A stretch of 15,468 nucleotides of DNA from Bdellovibrionales bacterium (GTDB taxonomy: Bacteria > Bdellovibrionota > Bdellovibrionia > Bdellovibrionales > UBA1609), in assembly GCA_050246815.1 (NCBI GenBank), contig JBFWVI010000064.1, forward strand, positions 1 through 15,468. Reading direction: 5' to 3'. Under the pieces are notes generated by a model that did no database searches, was not told the origin of the DNA, and saw only the letters and a list, made by a program, of their open reading frames with translations. The position numbers and the translations under genes were made by a program. Below are positions 4,372 through 15,375 of the stretch, piece by piece (the first letter of the stretch is position 1; every line of letters begins with the position of its first letter).

Positions 4372-4953
4372 ATGAAAAAATTAATTCTTGGTACTGCGGT
4401 TTTGTTTACGGCAGTCGCCTTCGCTGCAGATCCAACGACGACGACAGCCAATACTCCACCTCAGTGGATGAAATACACCACTCCCGCAGAAGGTCACAAA
4501 GCCGTGAAAGACTTAACCGGCAAATTCAACTACACCATGAAATGGTGGGCCTCGGCCACAGCGACCCCCGAACTATCCAAAGGAACCAGTCGAAACAAAT
4601 GGGTTTTGGGCGATCGCTATTTGCAACAAGAAGTCAAAGGCACCGCCATGGGACAGCCCTTTAATGGCATTGGCTTTTTAGCTTTCGACAACTTCCGCGG
4701 CGAGTACCAATCGATTTGGATGGATGACATGAGCACTTCGATCCTGAACACCTCAGGCAAAATGGACCCCGCCACTAAAGCTATTACTCAAACCGGTACA
4801 GCTTCAGATCCGATGAAGGGCGACAAAAATGCTTGGTTTCGTACCGAACTGAAATTGATCGGCAAAAACGAACATATTTATGAAATGTACTCCAAGGGCA
4901 CGGACGGCAAAGAGTTCAAGTCCATGGAGATCAATTACAAGCGCGCTCAATAG
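4372..4953 (+). CDS. Secreted DUF1579-domain protein
   Basis: Signal peptide ending AVAFA. Motifs PAEGHK, LGDRYLQQE, GQPFNGIG, YQSIWMDDMST, KSMEINYKR. SD AAGGGGG. Confidence 0.85.
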   Translation: MKKLILGTAVLFTAVAFAADPTTTTANTPPQWMKYTTPAEGHKAVKDLTGKFNYTMKWWASATATPELSKGTSRNKWVLGDRYLQQEVKGTAMGQPFNGIGFLAFDNFRGEYQSIWMDDMSTSILNTSGKMDPATKAITQTGTASDPMKGDKNAWFRTELKLIGKNEHIYEMYSKGTDGKEFKSMEINYKRAQ

Positions 4954-4959
4954 AACAAA

Positions 4960-5820
4960 ATGAGTGTCCGCTTTGCACCCTCGCCCACCGGAGCTTTTCA
5001 TGTTGGCAACTTCCGCACCGCCTGGATTTCATTTCAGTGGGCGCGGCTGCTGCGCCAACCCTGGGTCGTGCGATTTGAAGACATCGACACGCCCCGGGTG
5101 GTGGCGGGCAGTCAACAGCAACAATTGGATGAGATGTTGCAACTGGGTCTAAAACCAGACCGTGTCTTAAAACAAAGTGAGCGACGCCAACGGCACTGGC
5201 AGCTCTTTCAAACCGCTTTGCAGCAGAAGATGATCTACCCCTGCCATTGCTCACGCAAAGAAGTATTGGCCAGCCTGGCGTCAGCCCCTCATGGCAAAGA
5301 GGCCGTTTATTCAGGGCGCTGTCGGCATGGCACTCTTGACACCCCTTCTGGCCCCAGCATCGCCTGGCGATTTTGCACACCTGAAGTCGATGGGCGCGGC
5401 GACTTTATCATCGCACGCACCTCACCTGACGGCAGTGAAGCCTCGTTTGTGCCCGCTTATCATTGGGCATGCGCCGTTGATGACTGGGAAGAGGGCCATA
5501 AGCTGCTCGTACGGGCTTGGGATTTGGCGGACGCGACCACCGTGCAAAGACATTTGCAAAAATGGCTGCGCGGCAACGAAGATAAGCCGCTTCCAGCGGT
5601 TTATCACACCGCTTTAGTGACTCTCAACAACGGCCAACGCCTTGAAAAGCGCACGGCCAATGTCACTTGGCAAGAGCTCAATGGCTTGGGATTTGGCCCG
5701 TCAAAATTACAGAAAATTTTCAGTGAGAGCTTTTCTGCCCACTTCGAAGAATTTGAATACGCGAAGGTTTGGGGCGAGATTCGGCGCAGTGTTTCGCTGG
5801 ACGAACTAGGCTTCACCTGA
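4960..5820 (+). CDS. gluQ: Glutamyl-queuosine tRNA(Asp) synthetase-like protein (GluRS catalytic domain only)
   Basis: RFAPSPTG, HVGN (HIGH), RFEDID, Zn motif CHCSR...YSGRC, AYHWACAVDD, RLEKR (KMSKS equivalent). 286 aa with no anticodon-binding domain. Confidence 0.85.
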   Translation: MSVRFAPSPTGAFHVGNFRTAWISFQWARLLRQPWVVRFEDIDTPRVVAGSQQQQLDEMLQLGLKPDRVLKQSERRQRHWQLFQTALQQKMIYPCHCSRKEVLASLASAPHGKEAVYSGRCRHGTLDTPSGPSIAWRFCTPEVDGRGDFIIARTSPDGSEASFVPAYHWACAVDDWEEGHKLLVRAWDLADATTVQRHLQKWLRGNEDKPLPAVYHTALVTLNNGQRLEKRTANVTWQELNGLGFGPSKLQKIFSESFSAHFEEFEYAKVWGEIRRSVSLDELGFT

Positions 5821-8567: not shown

Positions 8568-10166
8568 CTACTTGGCGCGAAATCCAACAATCTGCACAGC
8601 CCAATTGGTAGAAACCGGCAGCCCTGCGTTCATTTGATAAGTCCCTGTTTGGCTCACCAGCTTATCGGCCATTGGCGTCAAACCGAAGAAAGGTCGGACC
8701 GTGTAGTCCGATTCAAAAGCTCCCCAACCATACTCGCTTAAAACCCCAGCATAGATCAAAACGTTGGGGGCGCGAGTGGCAAAGCTGCCACTGCGGGCCG
8801 TTATGCCAGAACCCGAGACTCCCACAAACACATCAACAGGTTCGACCGTATCCGCGCCCGAATACTCGTTCACATACAAGTTATTCAGACGACTGCTGTT
8901 GGTAAATACGGCGGTGACTTTGTTTATGCTGGCTTTGATATCTTTGGCATACCAGATTTGCAAATGATAACCGGAGGCCGTCGTCACGCGAGGCCCCGCC
9001 GCCTGGTAAGTGTTGCCTGCGGAATCCCGCACGGCTTGCAGCTGCGCACTGCCCTGCCAATCTATTTGCGCCACGATTAAGTTGCCCGCTGTATTGGGCG
9101 AGGCAAAGCTGGCCGAAGACTGGTTGGTGCTGCGATCAAAAAGCGCATACTGAGATTGGATCTGAGCGATCACGGGTGGCGTCGACGGGGGCTGGTACAC
9201 GATATCATCTAAACCGACGCCTGCATTTCGGTAAGGATCGGGCAGAGTGGTGGTTCGGTGCAGGTAAATTGAATTTGAAGGCTTGGTGAAATTGGTGCGG
9301 ACCAAATGCATCTTGCGATCAGCCGGAATACGCTGGGTTACACTTTGTCCTTGGTCATCGTAAATTCTCAGCTCCACATCGCCCTTCGAGGCAAAAGCCT
9401 TCAAACTGAGCAAAATTTTAGGACCACCCGAAAAGTTAAAACCGGTGTCGCCCGTGGTGCTTGAGCTATTCACGGCAAAGTTACTCGTGCTGGCATCAAA
9501 GGGCAAACTCCAGCCCCAAATCCCGGGCGTAAACTCGATCCCCTTATAAAGACCTTCTAGTAAATTGGCAGTGCTTGGCACCCCGACTGCGGGATTGTCA
9601 AAATCCACCAAAACCGCGCCCGGTGGTGGCTCGTCCACCTTTGGCGCCTCAAATCGATTCTCGCGGAAAACTTGGCCACACTGCTCAGGCAACGAAGGAA
9701 TCATCCCTTTCACACCCGAGAAGGCATCAAAACTATTTTTGTCGTAGGCGGCTTTCACCGCTGCCGAATCGGGACTCAAACCTTGAATCGCACCTAGGCA
9801 GGCTTGTAAGTACCCCTCATTCGCCCTGACAGCCGTGGCTTCTTCGGCATCACAAAGATTGTAATAGGGGTTGAGCACCTTTTCAGGCACGCCCAGATTA
9901 TTGATTAGGCTGGTGATGGAGACCCCGCCACGACAGGCTTCCAACGACAAGTCCGGGTGGGCCCGCGTTAAAACATCACAAGTGGCATCTAAAATCTTTT
10001 TGCAGCCTTCGGACGGCTTGGGATTACCGGTGTTGGTGCCCTGCAAAACCGTGCTCGTCTGCGTTTTTTTCGCATCACCCGAATTTCCTAAAATTCCGCA
10101 GGCATTGTAGGCCGCTAGCAAAACCAGAACTACACTCAGCATGGTGATATGCCATATCTGTCTCAT
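8568..10166 (-). CDS. Multi-domain hypothetical lipoprotein (Cys-rich N domain plus two beta-rich domains)
   Basis: Signal peptide ending LAAYNA-C23, then GTNTGNP and six further Cys. Two beta-rich regions follow (VLVDFDN...GLDDIVY; NTAGNLIVA...RDSAGNTY...IWYAK...EYSG). ATGA overlap with the upstream gene. Confidence 0.8.
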   Translation of the reverse strand: MRQIWHITMLSVVLVLLAAYNACGILGNSGDAKKTQTSTVLQGTNTGNPKPSEGCKKILDATCDVLTRAHPDLSLEACRGGVSITSLINNLGVPEKVLNPYYNLCDAEEATAVRANEGYLQACLGAIQGLSPDSAAVKAAYDKNSFDAFSGVKGMIPSLPEQCGQVFRENRFEAPKVDEPPPGAVLVDFDNPAVGVPSTANLLEGLYKGIEFTPGIWGWSLPFDASTSNFAVNSSSTTGDTGFNFSGGPKILLSLKAFASKGDVELRIYDDQGQSVTQRIPADRKMHLVRTNFTKPSNSIYLHRTTTLPDPYRNAGVGLDDIVYQPPSTPPVIAQIQSQYALFDRSTNQSSASFASPNTAGNLIVAQIDWQGSAQLQAVRDSAGNTYQAAGPRVTTASGYHLQIWYAKDIKASINKVTAVFTNSSRLNNLYVNEYSGADTVEPVDVFVGVSGSGITARSGSFATRAPNVLIYAGVLSEYGWGAFESDYTVRPFFGLTPMADKLVSQTGTYQMNAGLPVSTNWAVQIVGFRAK

Positions 10167-11026
10167 GCGCTTTCCCCTGTTTTCTTCTTAATTTCTTCGG
10201 TGAGCGGAAAAAACTGAAAACCCAACTGGTAAACCTGGGCCGCTCCCGCCTCCTGCGATGACATTTCAATAATTTCTTTGCGCAGCTGCTGAATCAGCTC
10301 TTTGATCTTTTTGATCCCACCCTCCGTGACGGTGATAGTCACGGCTGAAATATCGCGCTTTTCACGCGGAAAACGATCAATAGAGTCTCCCGCCTTATTT
10401 AACATCTCTTTGTGATACAAACGAATCAGCGGCGAAATCACTTCGTTGGGGGTTTCGACATTGCGGTCCGTTTGCTGAAGCCGCCCGCTTGCATCCCTGC
10501 GGATCAAACCCAACTTTTCCAATTCGACCAAGGCCTTTTTTGCCTCGACGGCCGTGATAGCGGGGTTGAGCTGTTTGGCGATCCATTCGGGGTCCTCTTG
10601 AAAACCTTCGAAACTCACCAGCTCTCGAATGGGCACAAAGTACCACTGCGCGTAGTAATTGTATTCGGACTCTTTTAAAGGATAGATCTTTTTAAAAACT
10701 TTCGAACGCAACAACTGTTCAGTATGGATTTTTTTCTCTTCGCTCGAGGTTGCCTGGTTTAGAAGAACAAGATGATGAAAGAACAAAGCTTCATCTTTTT
10801 TAAGCTTGAGAGCCTTGGCGATCTTTTCGATACTTTCTGACGCCAAGTTGCGCTGACCATCAATCACCAGCTTCAAAAAATTGGGTGATTGAAACCCTGC
10901 AATCCTTGAAAAGTATCGATACGAGAACTTCGCGTCATTTTGCTTTGACGAAAGGTACACGTCGCGCAAAAAATCGCGATAATTGTCGTATTCAAAAACA
11001 CTTTTTAAAGTGGGTGTGTTCAGCAA
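10163..11026 (-). CDS. TIGR02147 family protein (N-terminal HTH plus DUF4423)
   Basis: VFEYDNYRDFLRD, FSYRYFSRIAGFQSPNFLKLVIDGQRNL, YYAQWYFVPIREL, WIAKQL, REKRDIS, VYQLGFQFFPLT. TTG start with GGGGAG upstream. Confidence 0.92.
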   Translation of the reverse strand: MLNTPTLKSVFEYDNYRDFLRDVYLSSKQNDAKFSYRYFSRIAGFQSPNFLKLVIDGQRNLASESIEKIAKALKLKKDEALFFHHLVLLNQATSSEEKKIHTEQLLRSKVFKKIYPLKESEYNYYAQWYFVPIRELVSFEGFQEDPEWIAKQLNPAITAVEAKKALVELEKLGLIRRDASGRLQQTDRNVETPNEVISPLIRLYHKEMLNKAGDSIDRFPREKRDISAVTITVTEGGIKKIKELIQQLRKEIIEMSSQEAGAAQVYQLGFQFFPLTEEIKKKTGESA

Positions 11027-11298: not shown

Positions 11299-11673
11299 AT
11301 GGCCGCACGTCAATTGCGTCTGATGGGCAGTCTTTTGGCGCTCATGGGCGTTATGTTGTTCTTTAATAATTGTAGTCAAAGTGGCTTTGACGGTGTTCAA
11401 AGCCTTAACCAGGGATCCTCTCAATCTCCACCTCCACCCGCGACAAATGAGTGGAACGTCGGCACCCTGACCTTTATTGAGGGTGGCGGCACAACAATCG
11501 ATTTAGCCAACACCCTCCCACCTGAAATTAAAAGAAATGGAACATTTGCAGTGGACCCTAGCGGAGCCAACCTACCCCCCGGTATGAATTTGTCCGCTAG
11601 CGGTCTACTTTCTGTGAGCACGGCAGCCGCGGGCGACACCATCGGGGTCGTCTTCAACTACACGGAACCCTAA
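11299..11673 (+). CDS. Small lipoprotein with a putative-Ig (He_PIG-like) partial domain
   Basis: ATG 11299 with SD AGGGGGA. Signal ending FFNN-C25, Ser/Pro linker, then LPPGMNLSASGLLSV...GVVFNYTEP. Paralog of 12813..13184. Confidence 0.8.
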   Translation: MAARQLRLMGSLLALMGVMLFFNNCSQSGFDGVQSLNQGSSQSPPPPATNEWNVGTLTFIEGGGTTIDLANTLPPEIKRNGTFAVDPSGANLPPGMNLSASGLLSVSTAAAGDTIGVVFNYTEP

Positions 11674-11683
11674 AGGAGACGCC

Positions 11684-12799
11684 ATGAAATCGATTTACTT
11701 TAAGACCGCCCTCGCCCTAGCCGCAACTTTGAACCTCGGTGATTCCGCTTGGGCAGCAAAAATTCTTTCGAATAAAGTTAACATTTCAGTGCGCTCGACG
11801 CCCGTCGGCGCGCAAGACTTCGCCGCACGCTGCGCAGCTCCCGGAGTGGTGAAGTGCGTGGGCTTTGACCAAGCCTCAGATATTGCCGGAACCTTCGGCG
11901 AAAATTCGGGCATTTTCTCCGGAAGTAACAATGCCCCCCAATTGGATACGGCGGTTCGGGCCTCTGGTAATAGCTCACTTCGCTTTACGGTCACCACCTC
12001 TTCGGCCAGCTCGGGCGGCTCTTATTTTACTAATTTTTCCTCGGACCTGCAGACTCAGTTTGATTCAGGCCAAACCTTTTATGTTCAATGGCGACAACGT
12101 TTTGACACTCAATATGCCACGATGAACCTAGGCAGCTTTGGCAATGGTGGATGGAAGCAGGTGATTGTAGGTTCGGGCGATAAGCCGGGCTGCACAAAGT
12201 CCAATTCACTCACGATCGACAGCGGCGGCTTTTGTACATCTTCTTGCACGCCCCTCGAGACCGTCGTGCAAAACACCTATCACCGCGGCTTTCCCGTGAT
12301 GTACAACTCCTGCTCTGGCTCAAGTTCCACACAAAATGGCAAGTATGCTGGGGGCACGGGCCCGTATGTTCCATTTGAAGAGCCGTTCAATGGCTTTGAT
12401 TTTAAATTGCAAAATGCCATGCCTGCGCCCTATTGCCTGTACAGCCAAGGCGCCACAAACAGCTACTTTCCGCCCAAGGGGAATTGCTTTGGTTACGCCG
12501 CAAATGAATGGATGACCTTCAAGATGCGCATCGTGATTGGCACTCGCACCAACGACTATTTTAAAGGCAGTCACGTCGACTTGTGGGTTTCGCGCCAAGG
12601 GCAGGCTCCGGCCCATGTATTCAACTGGAACTGGGATCTGGCCGCAGGCCCCGCTGCGCAAAATCTGAAGTTCGGAAAAATTTGGCTGCTGACTTACAAC
12701 AGCAACAATGCGGGCAACAACAACGCGCCCGTTCCGACGGCACAAACTTGGTATGATGATTTAATTATTTCTACGCAAGACATCGCGGATCCGAAATAG
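11684..12799 (+). CDS. Secreted Cys-rich hypothetical protein, possibly with a polysaccharide lyase-like/ConA-like jelly-roll fold
   Basis: SD AAGGAG, signal peptide ending AWA, 8 Cys. Motifs SLRFTV, FYVQWRQRF, GGWKQ, NEWMTF, WYDDLIIST. The fold call is inference. Confidence 0.75.
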   Translation: MKSIYFKTALALAATLNLGDSAWAAKILSNKVNISVRSTPVGAQDFAARCAAPGVVKCVGFDQASDIAGTFGENSGIFSGSNNAPQLDTAVRASGNSSLRFTVTTSSASSGGSYFTNFSSDLQTQFDSGQTFYVQWRQRFDTQYATMNLGSFGNGGWKQVIVGSGDKPGCTKSNSLTIDSGGFCTSSCTPLETVVQNTYHRGFPVMYNSCSGSSSTQNGKYAGGTGPYVPFEEPFNGFDFKLQNAMPAPYCLYSQGATNSYFPPKGNCFGYAANEWMTFKMRIVIGTRTNDYFKGSHVDLWVSRQGQAPAHVFNWNWDLAAGPAAQNLKFGKIWLLTYNSNNAGNNNAPVPTAQTWYDDLIISTQDIADPK

Positions 12800-12812
12800 A
12801 GGAGATGACGCC

Positions 12813-13184
12813 ATGAGCAACAAGAACATATCCAATCGACGAATTTTTCTGGCCCGAAGCTTGACCGTGGTGACGGCCCTGGCCACCCACAAACTGCTCG
12901 ATTTGTGGCCTGCACAATTTTCGCCACAACAAACCGACTGGCACATCGACACTGAAACACTGCAAGACATTCTACAAAGAAAAAGTTCAGCGAACCTGGC
13001 CCAGACGTTACCCCCACACATCCAACGCGGTGGACGCTTTAGCGTGGATCCGGCAGGCGCGTCTCTTCCAAATGGAGTTCATCTTTCACCCGAGGGCATC
13101 TTGACCATTCAGACCGCAGCCCCTACCCAGATGGTCGGTGTCGTGTTCAACTATGATGAGCCCGAAGTAAATCAATTAGGATAA
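12813..13184 (+). CDS. Small twin-arginine-signal protein with a putative-Ig partial domain
   Basis: SD AGGAG and Tat-like SNRRIFL. The 57-residue core is 33/57 identical (manual ungapped count) to 11299..11673. Confidence 0.8.
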   Translation: MSNKNISNRRIFLARSLTVVTALATHKLLDLWPAQFSPQQTDWHIDTETLQDILQRKSSANLAQTLPPHIQRGGRFSVDPAGASLPNGVHLSPEGILTIQTAAPTQMVGVVFNYDEPEVNQLG

Positions 13185-13195
13185 GGACGTACACA

Positions 13196-14284
13196 ATGGC
13201 ACAACTCAAGTCAAAGCCGACCACACTGAAAGTTTTTACTCCGGGCAATTCGACTCTGGCGAAGCTTGCAGCTTCAATGCCTGCAGGCTCTTGGGCACAA
13301 CTGACGCCAGCCAACAATCAAAATGCCTTTGTCGGCGCAGGCACCATATCGGGGACGATGATTCACTATTGCAACTCGATGCCGTGGAATCCGAAAGCGC
13401 GAGCCATAGAAATTTTGGCCATGGATCACGCCTACGGCTCTTTGCGCTACGTTCGCTACAACGAACCCACCAATCAATTTGAATTGATGGCAAATGATGT
13501 GGGAATGGGCAGCTTCACTCAACATGGTTATGACCATGTGAATATTGATCCGCTCACGGGCGACCTCTATTACCGCCCGTACAGCGTCAACACCGGCTTG
13601 ATCAGTTGCTATAAAAAACCGCTGGGCAGCATGACCTTCTCTCCCCTGCCCACGCACCCCAGTGACAAAGGCTCGGAGCAAGCCGCCATCGGCACCTGTT
13701 GGTGGTCCGGAACCATTGCCGGCGGAGGCAGCAAGGGCCACCTGATCGTTTTCAACAGCGGCAATGCCGTTAGTTCGGCCAATGATGGACAAATCTGTGG
13801 TTACAATCCCACCACCAACACCTGGTTCTTCAATCAAGTGGCCATGGCACCAAACTATGGCAGCGGCTCCACTTATCACAGTGTCATCGAATACAGTCCC
13901 ATCAAAAATGTGGCGGTCTATGGCGGTGGTAACGTCGCCACCAACAGACTGTGGCGCCTGAATGCGGACCGGACATTTGTCGCTATGCCCAACGTGCCCG
14001 CAGGCAAAGGCGTTGGCATGCAACAAGGCATTATTTGTGCAGACCCCGTCACCGGAAATTTTATTCTGCTGAGTGCAGGACAGTTGTGGGAGCTCAACCC
14101 CGATGGCGCGGGCAGCTGGGCTCAACTCAACGGCGGCCGTCAACCCCCGGCGGGAGTCGGAAGCCCCGGCCCTGGCACTCCCGATGGCCTTATTTGTTGC
14201 CCAATCCCCGATTACGGAGTGATCGCCTACATCAAGCAAACTTCGATGACCGGCGGAACATTTTATCTTTATAAACACGCTTAG
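13196..14284 (+). CDS. Hypothetical protein, probable beta-propeller, no signal peptide (paralog 1)
   Basis: SD AAGGA. Blade-like repeats WNPKARAIEI, YNEPTNQF, IDPLTGDLYY, YNPTTNTW, YSPIKNVAVYGGG, DPVTGNFILL, IPDYGVIAY. Confidence 0.85.
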   Translation: MAQLKSKPTTLKVFTPGNSTLAKLAASMPAGSWAQLTPANNQNAFVGAGTISGTMIHYCNSMPWNPKARAIEILAMDHAYGSLRYVRYNEPTNQFELMANDVGMGSFTQHGYDHVNIDPLTGDLYYRPYSVNTGLISCYKKPLGSMTFSPLPTHPSDKGSEQAAIGTCWWSGTIAGGGSKGHLIVFNSGNAVSSANDGQICGYNPTTNTWFFNQVAMAPNYGSGSTYHSVIEYSPIKNVAVYGGGNVATNRLWRLNADRTFVAMPNVPAGKGVGMQQGIICADPVTGNFILLSAGQLWELNPDGAGSWAQLNGGRQPPAGVGSPGPGTPDGLICCPIPDYGVIAYIKQTSMTGGTFYLYKHA

Positions 14285-14295
14285 ACGGAATGCAA

Positions 14296-15375
14296 ATGGC
14301 CAAATTTAAATCATCGCCAACAAACTTGAAAGTTTATGTACCGGGCAATTCTGCGCTGGCGAAATTGGCCGCCTCGATGCCTGCAGGCTCTTGGGCCAAG
14401 CTGGACGTGTCCAACCAAAACGCCATTCTGGGCGTGGGCTCGGTGTCAGGCTCGATGTTACACTACTGCAACTCGGCCCCATGGAATGCAAAAAACAAAT
14501 CGATTGAAATTTTAGGACAAGATCACAACTACCCCTTCATGCGTCACGTGCGCTACGATGAGGTGACCAACCAGTTTGTGCTGGTTGCCGATAATGCCGG
14601 AATCGGCTCTGGTCATGGCTATGACCACAGCAGCTTGAACCCCACAAACGGGGACTTGTACACGCGGCTTTACAGTGGGTTCTCGGGCAAAATATCTGTA
14701 CGCAAAAAAGCATTTGGAACCGCAAATTATGTCGACATCCCCAGTGTCCCCGCAACCGACCAAGTGGCAATCGGCACTTGTTGGTGGTCGGGCTCTTTTG
14801 TCGGCGGCGGAGCCCAGGGCTCATTCATGGTTTTCAATAGCGGCAATTCAGTCAACGGCGCAAAGGATGGGCACATCGCCGCCTACAACCCGTTGACAAA
14901 CACCTGGTTCTTCAGTCAAGAGGGTTGCGCTCCCAACTATGGCAGCGGCGCCACATACCACAGCGTGATCGAATATAGCTCCATCAAAAATGTCGCCGTC
15001 TACGGCGGCGGCAACGTCGCCTCGAATAGACTTTGGCGCCTCAGCTCCGATGCCAGCATCATCGCCATGCCCAACGTGCCCACTGGTAAGGCTGTGGGCA
15101 TCCAATCCGGCAACTTGGTCAACGATCCCGTGACGGGAAATTTTCTTTTGCTAAGCGGTCGCGAGCTGTGGGAGCTCAATCCAGACGGAGCGGGCAAGTG
15201 GACTCAGCAAACGGGATCTCGCGTGCCACCCGCCGATGCGGCTTTCCCTGGGCCAGGCGCGCTTTCGGACTTAGATGGCGTCGTTTCATGCGCCATTCCT
15301 GAATATGGTGTTGTGGTGTACATCAAGCAAAAACTGCAAACAGGGGGCAATGTTTATCTGTATAAACACGCCTAA
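14296..15375 (+). CDS. Hypothetical protein, probable beta-propeller, no signal peptide (paralog 2)
   Basis: Collinear with 13196..14284 end to end (LAKLAASMPAGSWA, HGYDH, AIGTCWWSG, TYHSVIEYS, YLYKHA). ATG 14296 preferred over 14290 because of GGA spacing and alignment. Confidence 0.85.
   Translation: MAKFKSSPTNLKVYVPGNSALAKLAASMPAGSWAKLDVSNQNAILGVGSVSGSMLHYCNSAPWNAKNKSIEILGQDHNYPFMRHVRYDEVTNQFVLVADNAGIGSGHGYDHSSLNPTNGDLYTRLYSGFSGKISVRKKAFGTANYVDIPSVPATDQVAIGTCWWSGSFVGGGAQGSFMVFNSGNSVNGAKDGHIAAYNPLTNTWFFSQEGCAPNYGSGATYHSVIEYSSIKNVAVYGGGNVASNRLWRLSSDASIIAMPNVPTGKAVGIQSGNLVNDPVTGNFLLLSGRELWELNPDGAGKWTQQTGSRVPPADAAFPGPGALSDLDGVVSCAIPEYGVVVYIKQKLQTGGNVYLYKHA

Follow-up and report, generated by a model that had tools for sequence, protein, structure and literature searches.

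The subject of this report is a stretch of 15,468 nucleotides from a Bdellovibrionales bacterium (GenBank assembly GCA_050246815.1, contig JBFWVI010000064.1), called the window below, which is the entire contig and belongs to a host genome of 3.4 Mb that is 99.1% complete. It contains the operon S1-C1-S2-C2-C3, i.e. five genes in one orientation with intergenic gaps of 10–13 nucleotides (Table 1). S1 and S2 are small proteins that carry at their C-terminus a truncated immunoglobulin (Ig)-like domain, here denominated socket, and C1, C2 and C3 are larger proteins (putative cargos) whose mature chains begin with a common short motif, here denominated tag. In the initial annotation of this DNA the two small proteins were described as paralogous, and they indeed share 33 identical columns in a core of 56–57 columns (BLASTP: 38 of 80 residues identical, E 2e-25). 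They also finish where it had placed their ends, at or just past GVVFNYxEP, with S1 stopping at EP and S2 running six residues further. Equally, the tags KILSNKVNISV (C1), QLKSKPTTLKV (C2) and KFKSSPTNLKV (C3) are located as claimed and all fit h-x-S-x4-h-x-V; as C2 and C3 are 61% identical, this motif is seen independently only twice inside the window.

Leader types, namely those of the general secretory (Sec) pathway, the pathway of twin-arginine translocation (Tat) and the lipobox of lipoproteins, were assigned by eye and with regular expressions. The signal peptide of C1 had been recognized correctly at the outset, but the twin-arginine leader of S2, the lipobox-type cysteine of S1 and the missing signal peptides of C2 and C3 (nearest upstream in-frame stops at 12 and 7 codons, respectively) had been overlooked. 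Lipoboxes of the host genome are of the FxNC type and, like a TIGR02147 gene, suggest a Bdellovibrio-like organism. Scans for promoters and terminators gave no more than chance level.

Table 1. Position of socket genes, cargo genes and their tags in the window
Feature	Position	Strand	Description and basis
S1, lipoprotein-type socket protein	11299..11673	+	hydrophobic leader with Cys25, Ser/Pro-rich linker, C-terminal truncated Ig-like domain; leader read from sequence
S1 socket domain, He_PIG/cadherin-like, predicted without last (G) strand	11446..11670	+	Pfam, AlphaFold2 model, VIA, repeat comparison
C1, cargo with Sec-type signal peptide, predicted polysaccharide-lyase-14-like beta-sandwich	11684..12799	+	Atlas features, structure match
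C1 tag, immediately past predicted signal cleavage site	11759..11794	+	tag profile
S2, Tat-type socket protein	12813..13184	+	twin-arginine motif at residues 7–13, hydrophobic stretch, no lipobox Cys
S2 socket domain	12933..13163	+	BLASTP, core alignment, socket profile
C2, signal-less cargo, predicted Kelch-like beta-propeller	13196..14284	+	Kelch_3 21.9 bits (cut-off 22)
C2 tag, residues 3–14	13202..13237	+	tag profile
C3, signal-less cargo, C2 paralogue (61% identical)	14296..15375	+	pairwise comparison, upstream stops
C3 tag, residues 3–14	14302..14337	+	tag profile

The socket domain and its fixed end

The socket domain comprises about 75 residues and forms the C-terminus of small exported proteins. 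Besides S1 and S2 this genome encodes three further copies, i.e. an adjacent pair of lipoprotein type and Tat type on contig C14 and one that ends a 578-residue repeat-stalked lipoprotein on contig C1. A profile built from these five detects 355 representatives at E≤1e-3, and in the best 150 of them the truncation point is constant, with the chain ending at most 2 residues from the profile end in 140 and at most 14 in 147. By its sequence the socket domain is apparently a diverged relative of He_PIG (PF05345, Pfam cut-off 24 bits): S1 scores 12.6 bits and S2 gives no match, 49 of 71 socket relatives match at E≤1, nearly all below the cut-off, and the best score among the matches listed is 22.8 bits, with one socket elsewhere reaching 24.8. 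The matches stop at profile position 61–77 of 96 and the chains end few residues later. The distance from the LPxGhxL...G anchor to the socket end amounts to 18–19 residues, where complete He_PIG repeats (n=25) enter a further strand. The proposal that the small domain is devoid of its last strand is supported, as the chain stops directly behind the counterpart of strand F in He_PIG and cadherin domains.

In an AlphaFold2 model of the lone domain (predicted local distance difference test, pLDDT, 91.7) residues 1–16 and 61–67 belong to no strand. A first strand of its own is retained by the socket. According to VIA this model aligns to residues 1–83 of 104 of E-cadherin EC1 and 4–80 of 99 of cadherin-11 EC1 and covers about 79 of 104 residues of Rib Long (Z 4.2–4.5; 4.2–5.5 over the cadherin EC1 and Rib Long domains of 99–104 residues), and all its top matches are cadherin, Rib Long, dystroglycan and similar domains. 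The uncovered part of the cadherin and Rib domains is, following cadherin topology, presumably strand G. In the Atlas template modelling (TM) scores of 0.62–0.70 were obtained, mostly to He_PIG clusters, and the feature score of S1 for He_PIG is 0.92. Foldseek gave no match to the model at E≤0.001, no PDB sequence matches the socket profile, no NCBIfam family covers the sockets, and a word-index search with the S1 core returned S1 itself as sole match.

Leaders could be judged by regular expression in 121 sockets: 81 have a twin arginine, 80 a lipobox-like cysteine, 53 both and 13 neither. Several sockets are borne on long Ig or Pro-rich stalks, and neighbouring pairs of a lipoprotein socket and a Tat socket occur in the genomes G000, G002, G061 and G065. 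At locus L070 the frame of the socket (1945–2157) upstream of a tagged propeller is broken ahead of the domain, and an intact Tat-lipoprotein socket is found on the other strand (4887–5696).

P0234 and P0265 are fusions between a socket and a protein homologous to two tagged cargos encoded in this genome (E 5e-24 and 2e-20). Both proteins were considered as domains completed in cis and rejected as such, the strand past the socket belonging to the cargo domain; they are kept as evidence of fusion only. P0160 and P0182 show a socket at the C-terminus of an enzyme-like domain related to P0234/P0265, so that a cargo could itself bind further cargo. P0171 (174 residues, known from one 12-kb contig) consists of two socket repeats without signal peptide, with a tag-like segment ahead of each; the second segment directly follows the last strand of the first repeat, as a last strand in cis would sit. 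Its residues 17–102 obtain an Atlas He_PIG feature score of 0.94 compared with 0.92 for S1 alone, a gap too small to use, and Foldseek gave no matches to its model. P0171 might represent a head-to-tail extender or the subunit of a polymer.

The N-terminal tag and its cargos

The tag comprises 11 residues at the start of the mature chain with the consensus x-[IL]-x-S-x-P-T-x-h-x-[VI], in which Ser4 is almost invariant. A profile trained on the three tags of the window only was run over the N-termini of 2379 open reading frames (ORFs) of this genome and over internal control windows. It scores at least 14 in 16 ORFs (three being the training set) versus 3 control windows, and 13 of the 15 best held-out matches sit right after the Met or a signal-peptide-like segment; the motif thus exceeds a coincidence among three proteins. 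The iterated profile finds 21 of 2379 ORFs at 18 or above versus one internal control window, a count that is partly circular. These 21 tagged proteins (up to 24 with three borderline ones) include 15 with a signal peptide and six starting with Met-x-tag. They fall into 11 groups unrelated by BLAST (13 including the three borderline proteins) and their genes are spread over 11 contigs, mostly with no socket gene nearby. Clusters of tagged cargos without a socket on the same contig are found in G000 at C44 1–14000 (this contig alone having seven tagged genes), C89 1796–5538, C12 48189–51321 and C112 3134–5423. Tag-like sequences also open other Ig-like repeats inside long proteins, as in L164 (G288:C44) at position 650 and in P0269 at position 444.

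Pfam matches at E≤0.01 were obtained for 12 of the 21 tagged proteins scanned. They comprise Kelch-type propellers (6), beta-helix, lyase-14-like, apiosidase-like, PcRGLX and heparinase II/III-like proteins among others, most of the non-Kelch matches being below cut-off. One further tagged cargo without Pfam match is taken, from a sequence motif, to be pectate-lyase-like. No dockerin was matched among the 21. C1 has neither a Pfam match above cut-off nor a PDB sequence match; its Atlas features score 0.96 to a cluster composed to 54% of PF21294, its structure reaches TM 0.55 to polysaccharide lyase 14 clusters, and 9 of 10 structural matches have their first residue at position 31 or later, at 32–44 for the close ones. 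In the PDB the C2 profile matches nothing but designed or repeat propellers, and these along short segments, and a locus search with C2 as single protein found nothing.

A set of 120 propeller homologues includes 30 that are tagged and signal-less, 16 with a lipobox of their own and 13 with a Tat leader; some untagged ones carry fused stalk domains. For a tagged lyase-like cargo of a second family eight homologues come from genomes without socket match. None of these has a tag ahead of the catalytic core, but four possess a lipobox and linker, three are stalk fusions (one N-terminus not seen) and one has a plain signal. As untagged homologues often carry their own lipobox, linker or stalk, the tag apparently stands in for an anchor in cis. 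In a quick tree built from 89 of these 120 homologues, in which two tagged rows below threshold were mislabelled untagged, the tag label changes 14 times, at least five of these changes being forced by well-supported branches. Since untagged homologues are common and the label switches repeatedly, the tag is dispensable for the cargo folds, and the idea that the cargos do not need these N-termini for their own domains has held up.

Co-occurrence and leader types

The initial annotation expected tag and small domain to occur together at homologous loci, and this is what was found. The C2 propeller family yielded 83 loci with 62 rows of intact N-terminus, 41 of them non-redundant and 37 with at least 400 nucleotides upstream. 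Ten of these 37 have tag and socket, one the tag only, none the socket only and 26 neither (Fisher 3e-8, which is overstated because kin are not independent). The tag-only locus belongs to a Bdellovibrionales genome with four sockets elsewhere. Sockets are present in four of five genomes with tagged propellers versus none of five with untagged propellers. With a tag profile trained on this genome only, tags were detected for 17 out of 652 ORFs in the vicinity of sockets (the C2 family accounting for 10 or 11) versus 0 of 1072 ORFs in socket-free loci. The named loci belong to Bdellovibrionales, Myxococcaceae, Burkholderiaceae and other betaproteobacteria. The distribution is patchy, with sockets in 2 of 61 related genomes, and a phylum-wide search of lower sensitivity (at most 10 candidates scored per genome) found them in 0 of 400 other genomes.

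Socket type and cargo type correspond to each other. Considering the sockets immediately upstream of a tagged gene whose own leader can be seen (it could not at two loci), a signal-less cargo follows a twin-arginine socket in 10 of 10 pairings, nine of them from the C2 family, and a signal-bearing cargo follows a socket without twin arginine (plain lipoprotein type) in 3 of 3. Two socket types thus match two cargo types, which suggests hitchhiking through Tat besides lipid anchoring. The export of hitchhikers is established for HybOC and PaoABC (PMC4273604). Both a twin-arginine partner beside a signal-less protein (S2 with C2 and C3) and Tat machinery are found here, TatC being present in this genome and in three of four other genomes searched.

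A putative docking system and its alternatives

Judged from these sequences it is probable that the tag completes the Ig-like sandwich of the socket in trans, with lipoprotein sockets tethering the cargo, Tat sockets exporting it and Tat-lipoprotein sockets doing both. The socket domain would end one strand early and leave a predicted groove, which the N-terminal tag of the cargo would occupy in place of the absent last strand; many enzymes could then be served by a single type of socket. Five sockets stand against 21–24 cargos, which argues for shared and not dedicated docking. Sockets with a lipobox (S1 and the 578-residue stalked form) would tether the cargo to a membrane, the membrane side as well as the glycan substrates of the enzymes being putative; sockets with a twin arginine (S2) would bind the signal-less C2 and C3 in the cytoplasm and carry them through Tat as hitchhikers. 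In the betaproteobacterial loci a single Tat-lipoprotein socket may accomplish both export and tethering. The early description of the small proteins as anchors or carriers is supported but was incomplete, as some of them look like Tat export carriers and not only like anchors. A wider reading is more tentative, and we would put it at somewhat less than an even chance: a general sorting pathway in which the tag is a portable address, the cargo rides through Tat on an adaptor and is then passed, through an exchange of strands, to a socket with a lipid anchor or stalk, which would build up an exchangeable layer of glycan-active enzymes. Any folded protein could then be exported without pilus, cohesin or dedicated secretion signal, and in the adjacent socket pairs of four genomes the lipoprotein socket would be the receiver and the Tat socket the shuttle.

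Several observations weigh against trans completion by the tag. The lone socket domain models with confidence, against the claim that it is incomplete by itself, although strand pairing is lacking in its N-terminal segment and in residues 61–67; all its fold matches remain below Z 6 (best 5.9, middling). The tag itself has only a weak likeness to the last strand of He_PIG (hhalign P 0.17): mean scores of the tag profile over He_PIG repeats peak at this strand yet stay negative, the best match lies on it in just 7 of 25 repeats, and first strands of other Ig-like repeats are scored as well (11.7 and 13.5). All rows of the contingency table and nine of the ten twin-arginine pairings come from one propeller family whose members are kin and not independent. 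G062 has a tagged propeller (on a 2-kb contig) and no socket match, and in G002 (92% complete) a Tat-type socket and a signal-less cargo occur with TatA and no match for TatC. P0265 has no tag between socket and cargo part. In P0171, a single sequence without relatives, the tag-like segments score just 5.0 and 0.7, and its AlphaFold2 model, with an alignment confined to the second repeat and pLDDT below 50 in the first, is uninformative on a strand in cis.

There are also other explanations. Complementation might serve export or folding only, the socket being a chaperone or carrier that releases its cargo, or the tag might be read by a further secretion machine, in both cases with no lasting display. 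S2-type sockets without lipobox and the few sockets for many cargos would fit such a turnover, but we consider it unlikely in view of the lipobox-like cysteine in 80 of the 121 sockets (by regular expression), the long Ig or Pro-rich stalks of several sockets, the 15 cargos that keep the tag despite a signal peptide of their own and the untagged homologues that often have their own lipid anchor. Binding could also proceed without completion of the fold, if the domain, as a stable module of six strands or as a homodimer with swapped strands, took up the tag at the edge of a sheet or at another site. The fixed chain end just ahead of the last strand of complete repeats, the unpaired residues 1–16 and 61–67 and the first strand that the socket already owns make this quite improbable, even if the confident model of the lone domain and a tag that resembles He_PIG last strands weakly and first strands too would agree with it.

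The tag and the small gene might not interact at all and be simply co-inherited in one mobile glycan-degradation island, as the patchy distribution (2 of 61 related genomes and, at lower sensitivity, 0 of 400 others) and the relatedness of the co-occurrence rows could indicate. A tag on 11–13 unrelated families and 11 contigs, mostly with no socket nearby, and 14 label changes on the propeller tree, at least five of them forced, render this highly improbable. Most improbable appears a donor-strand pilus with the cargos as tip proteins and the small proteins as base or subunits: no convincing tag is found on any of 150 socket proteins other than P0171 (the five of this genome included) and an usher is absent in all five socket-bearing genomes searched, although P0171 with its tag-like N-terminus and open C-terminal domain could chain head to tail and, as reported in bioRxiv 10.64898/2026.10.17.759780, WxL pili carry variable payloads by donor-strand chemistry.

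Docking by strand completion would resemble several known systems. The cellulosome assembles numerous glycan-active enzymes on anchored scaffolds by means of a common docking module; its purpose is similar, but the dockerin is a folded calcium-binding domain, whereas here a single strand would complete the fold of its partner, with one socket per anchor. Cohesin (PF00963) was not found in this genome, and one of five genomes has one unrelated match. PilC/PilY1 is said to link a variable adhesin to a core complex by beta-strand addition of its C-terminal tail to type IV minor pilins, thus likewise using a short terminal strand, yet at the other chain end, with a pilin as partner, at a pilus tip and without an Ig lipoprotein socket. 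SpyTag/SpyCatcher is an engineered, covalent pair. An Ig-like domain split within one chain is described for the RTX adhesin FrhA (PMC10865825). FrhA and SpyTag/SpyCatcher have in common with the proposed socket an Ig-like fold built from discontinuous pieces.

Similar in chemistry are the chaperone-usher pili, in which an Ig-like domain without last strand is completed, by donor-strand complementation and exchange, by the N-terminal extension of another chain (PMC2500206). The proposed completion of an incomplete Ig-like domain in trans by an N-terminal donor is the same; different are the He_PIG/cadherin-like fold, the donor as bare tag on unrelated enzymes, the monomeric acceptor targeted to membrane or Tat, and the near absence of subunits with both donor and acceptor (P0171 alone, with weak segments). 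Usher PF00577 was detected in none of five socket-bearing genomes including this one, with a positive E. coli control. The WxL/Elr pilus of Enterococcus also attaches variable payloads to the envelope through an invariant module by donor-strand chemistry, but according to bioRxiv 10.64898/2026.10.17.759780 it needs a chaperone, a pilin polymer and a sortase, is restricted to Bacillota and has payloads that carry a whole domain and are catalytic in about 1%; the payloads described here bring 11 residues and seem for the most part to be enzymes. The Tat hitchhikers HybOC and PaoABC share the export of a signal-less protein bound to a twin-arginine partner; the known cases (PMC4273604) involve subunits dedicated to a single cofactor enzyme, in contrast with the small adaptor, unrelated cargos and portable tag proposed here. 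Pam pili are a further analogue (PMC13278184).

The system is a member of neither chaperone-usher pili, WxL pili nor cellulosomes. No description of the arrangement was found in the full-text literature searched, subscription papers and bioRxiv supplements being outside its scope; we regard the system as new and its chemistry as known from pili, with its parts and their use lacking a description in that literature. If the reading of tag and socket as partners is true, nature would possess a tag-and-socket system that is not part of a pilus, and this would account for the way in which dozens of "hypothetical" glycan-active proteins lacking a signal or an anchor reach the envelope of Bdellovibrio-like, myxobacterial and betaproteobacterial cells and stay there. 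The 11-residue motif would give a rule for finding such proteins, the 75-residue socket together with the 11-residue tag would be a candidate non-covalent pair for engineering, and a route for folded proteins through Tat without fusion to a signal peptide might be opened.

Divergent ahead of the socket operon lies a TIGR02147/DUF4423 gene (window 10163–11026, minus strand), and a similar-looking gene (L003:1927–2790, minus strand) precedes the tagged-cargo genes of C112, so both may encode a shared regulator. A 532-residue lipoprotein-like protein without Pfam or NCBIfam match is encoded at 8568–10166 (minus strand) in the same orientation as the TIGR02147 gene. Immediately behind the Tat leader, 13 of the 120 homologues of the propeller show another N-terminal motif, PCPPP-x-h-[ST]-h with a Thr-x-Cys after it (carriers noted: P0004, P0007–P0011, P0037, P0055, P0068, P0070, P0094, P0095, P0100 and P0109, and the loci L036, L040, L051, L056, L074 and L076). 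The motif is also present on one socket, P0260, and might act as an orthogonal docking tag closed by a disulfide.

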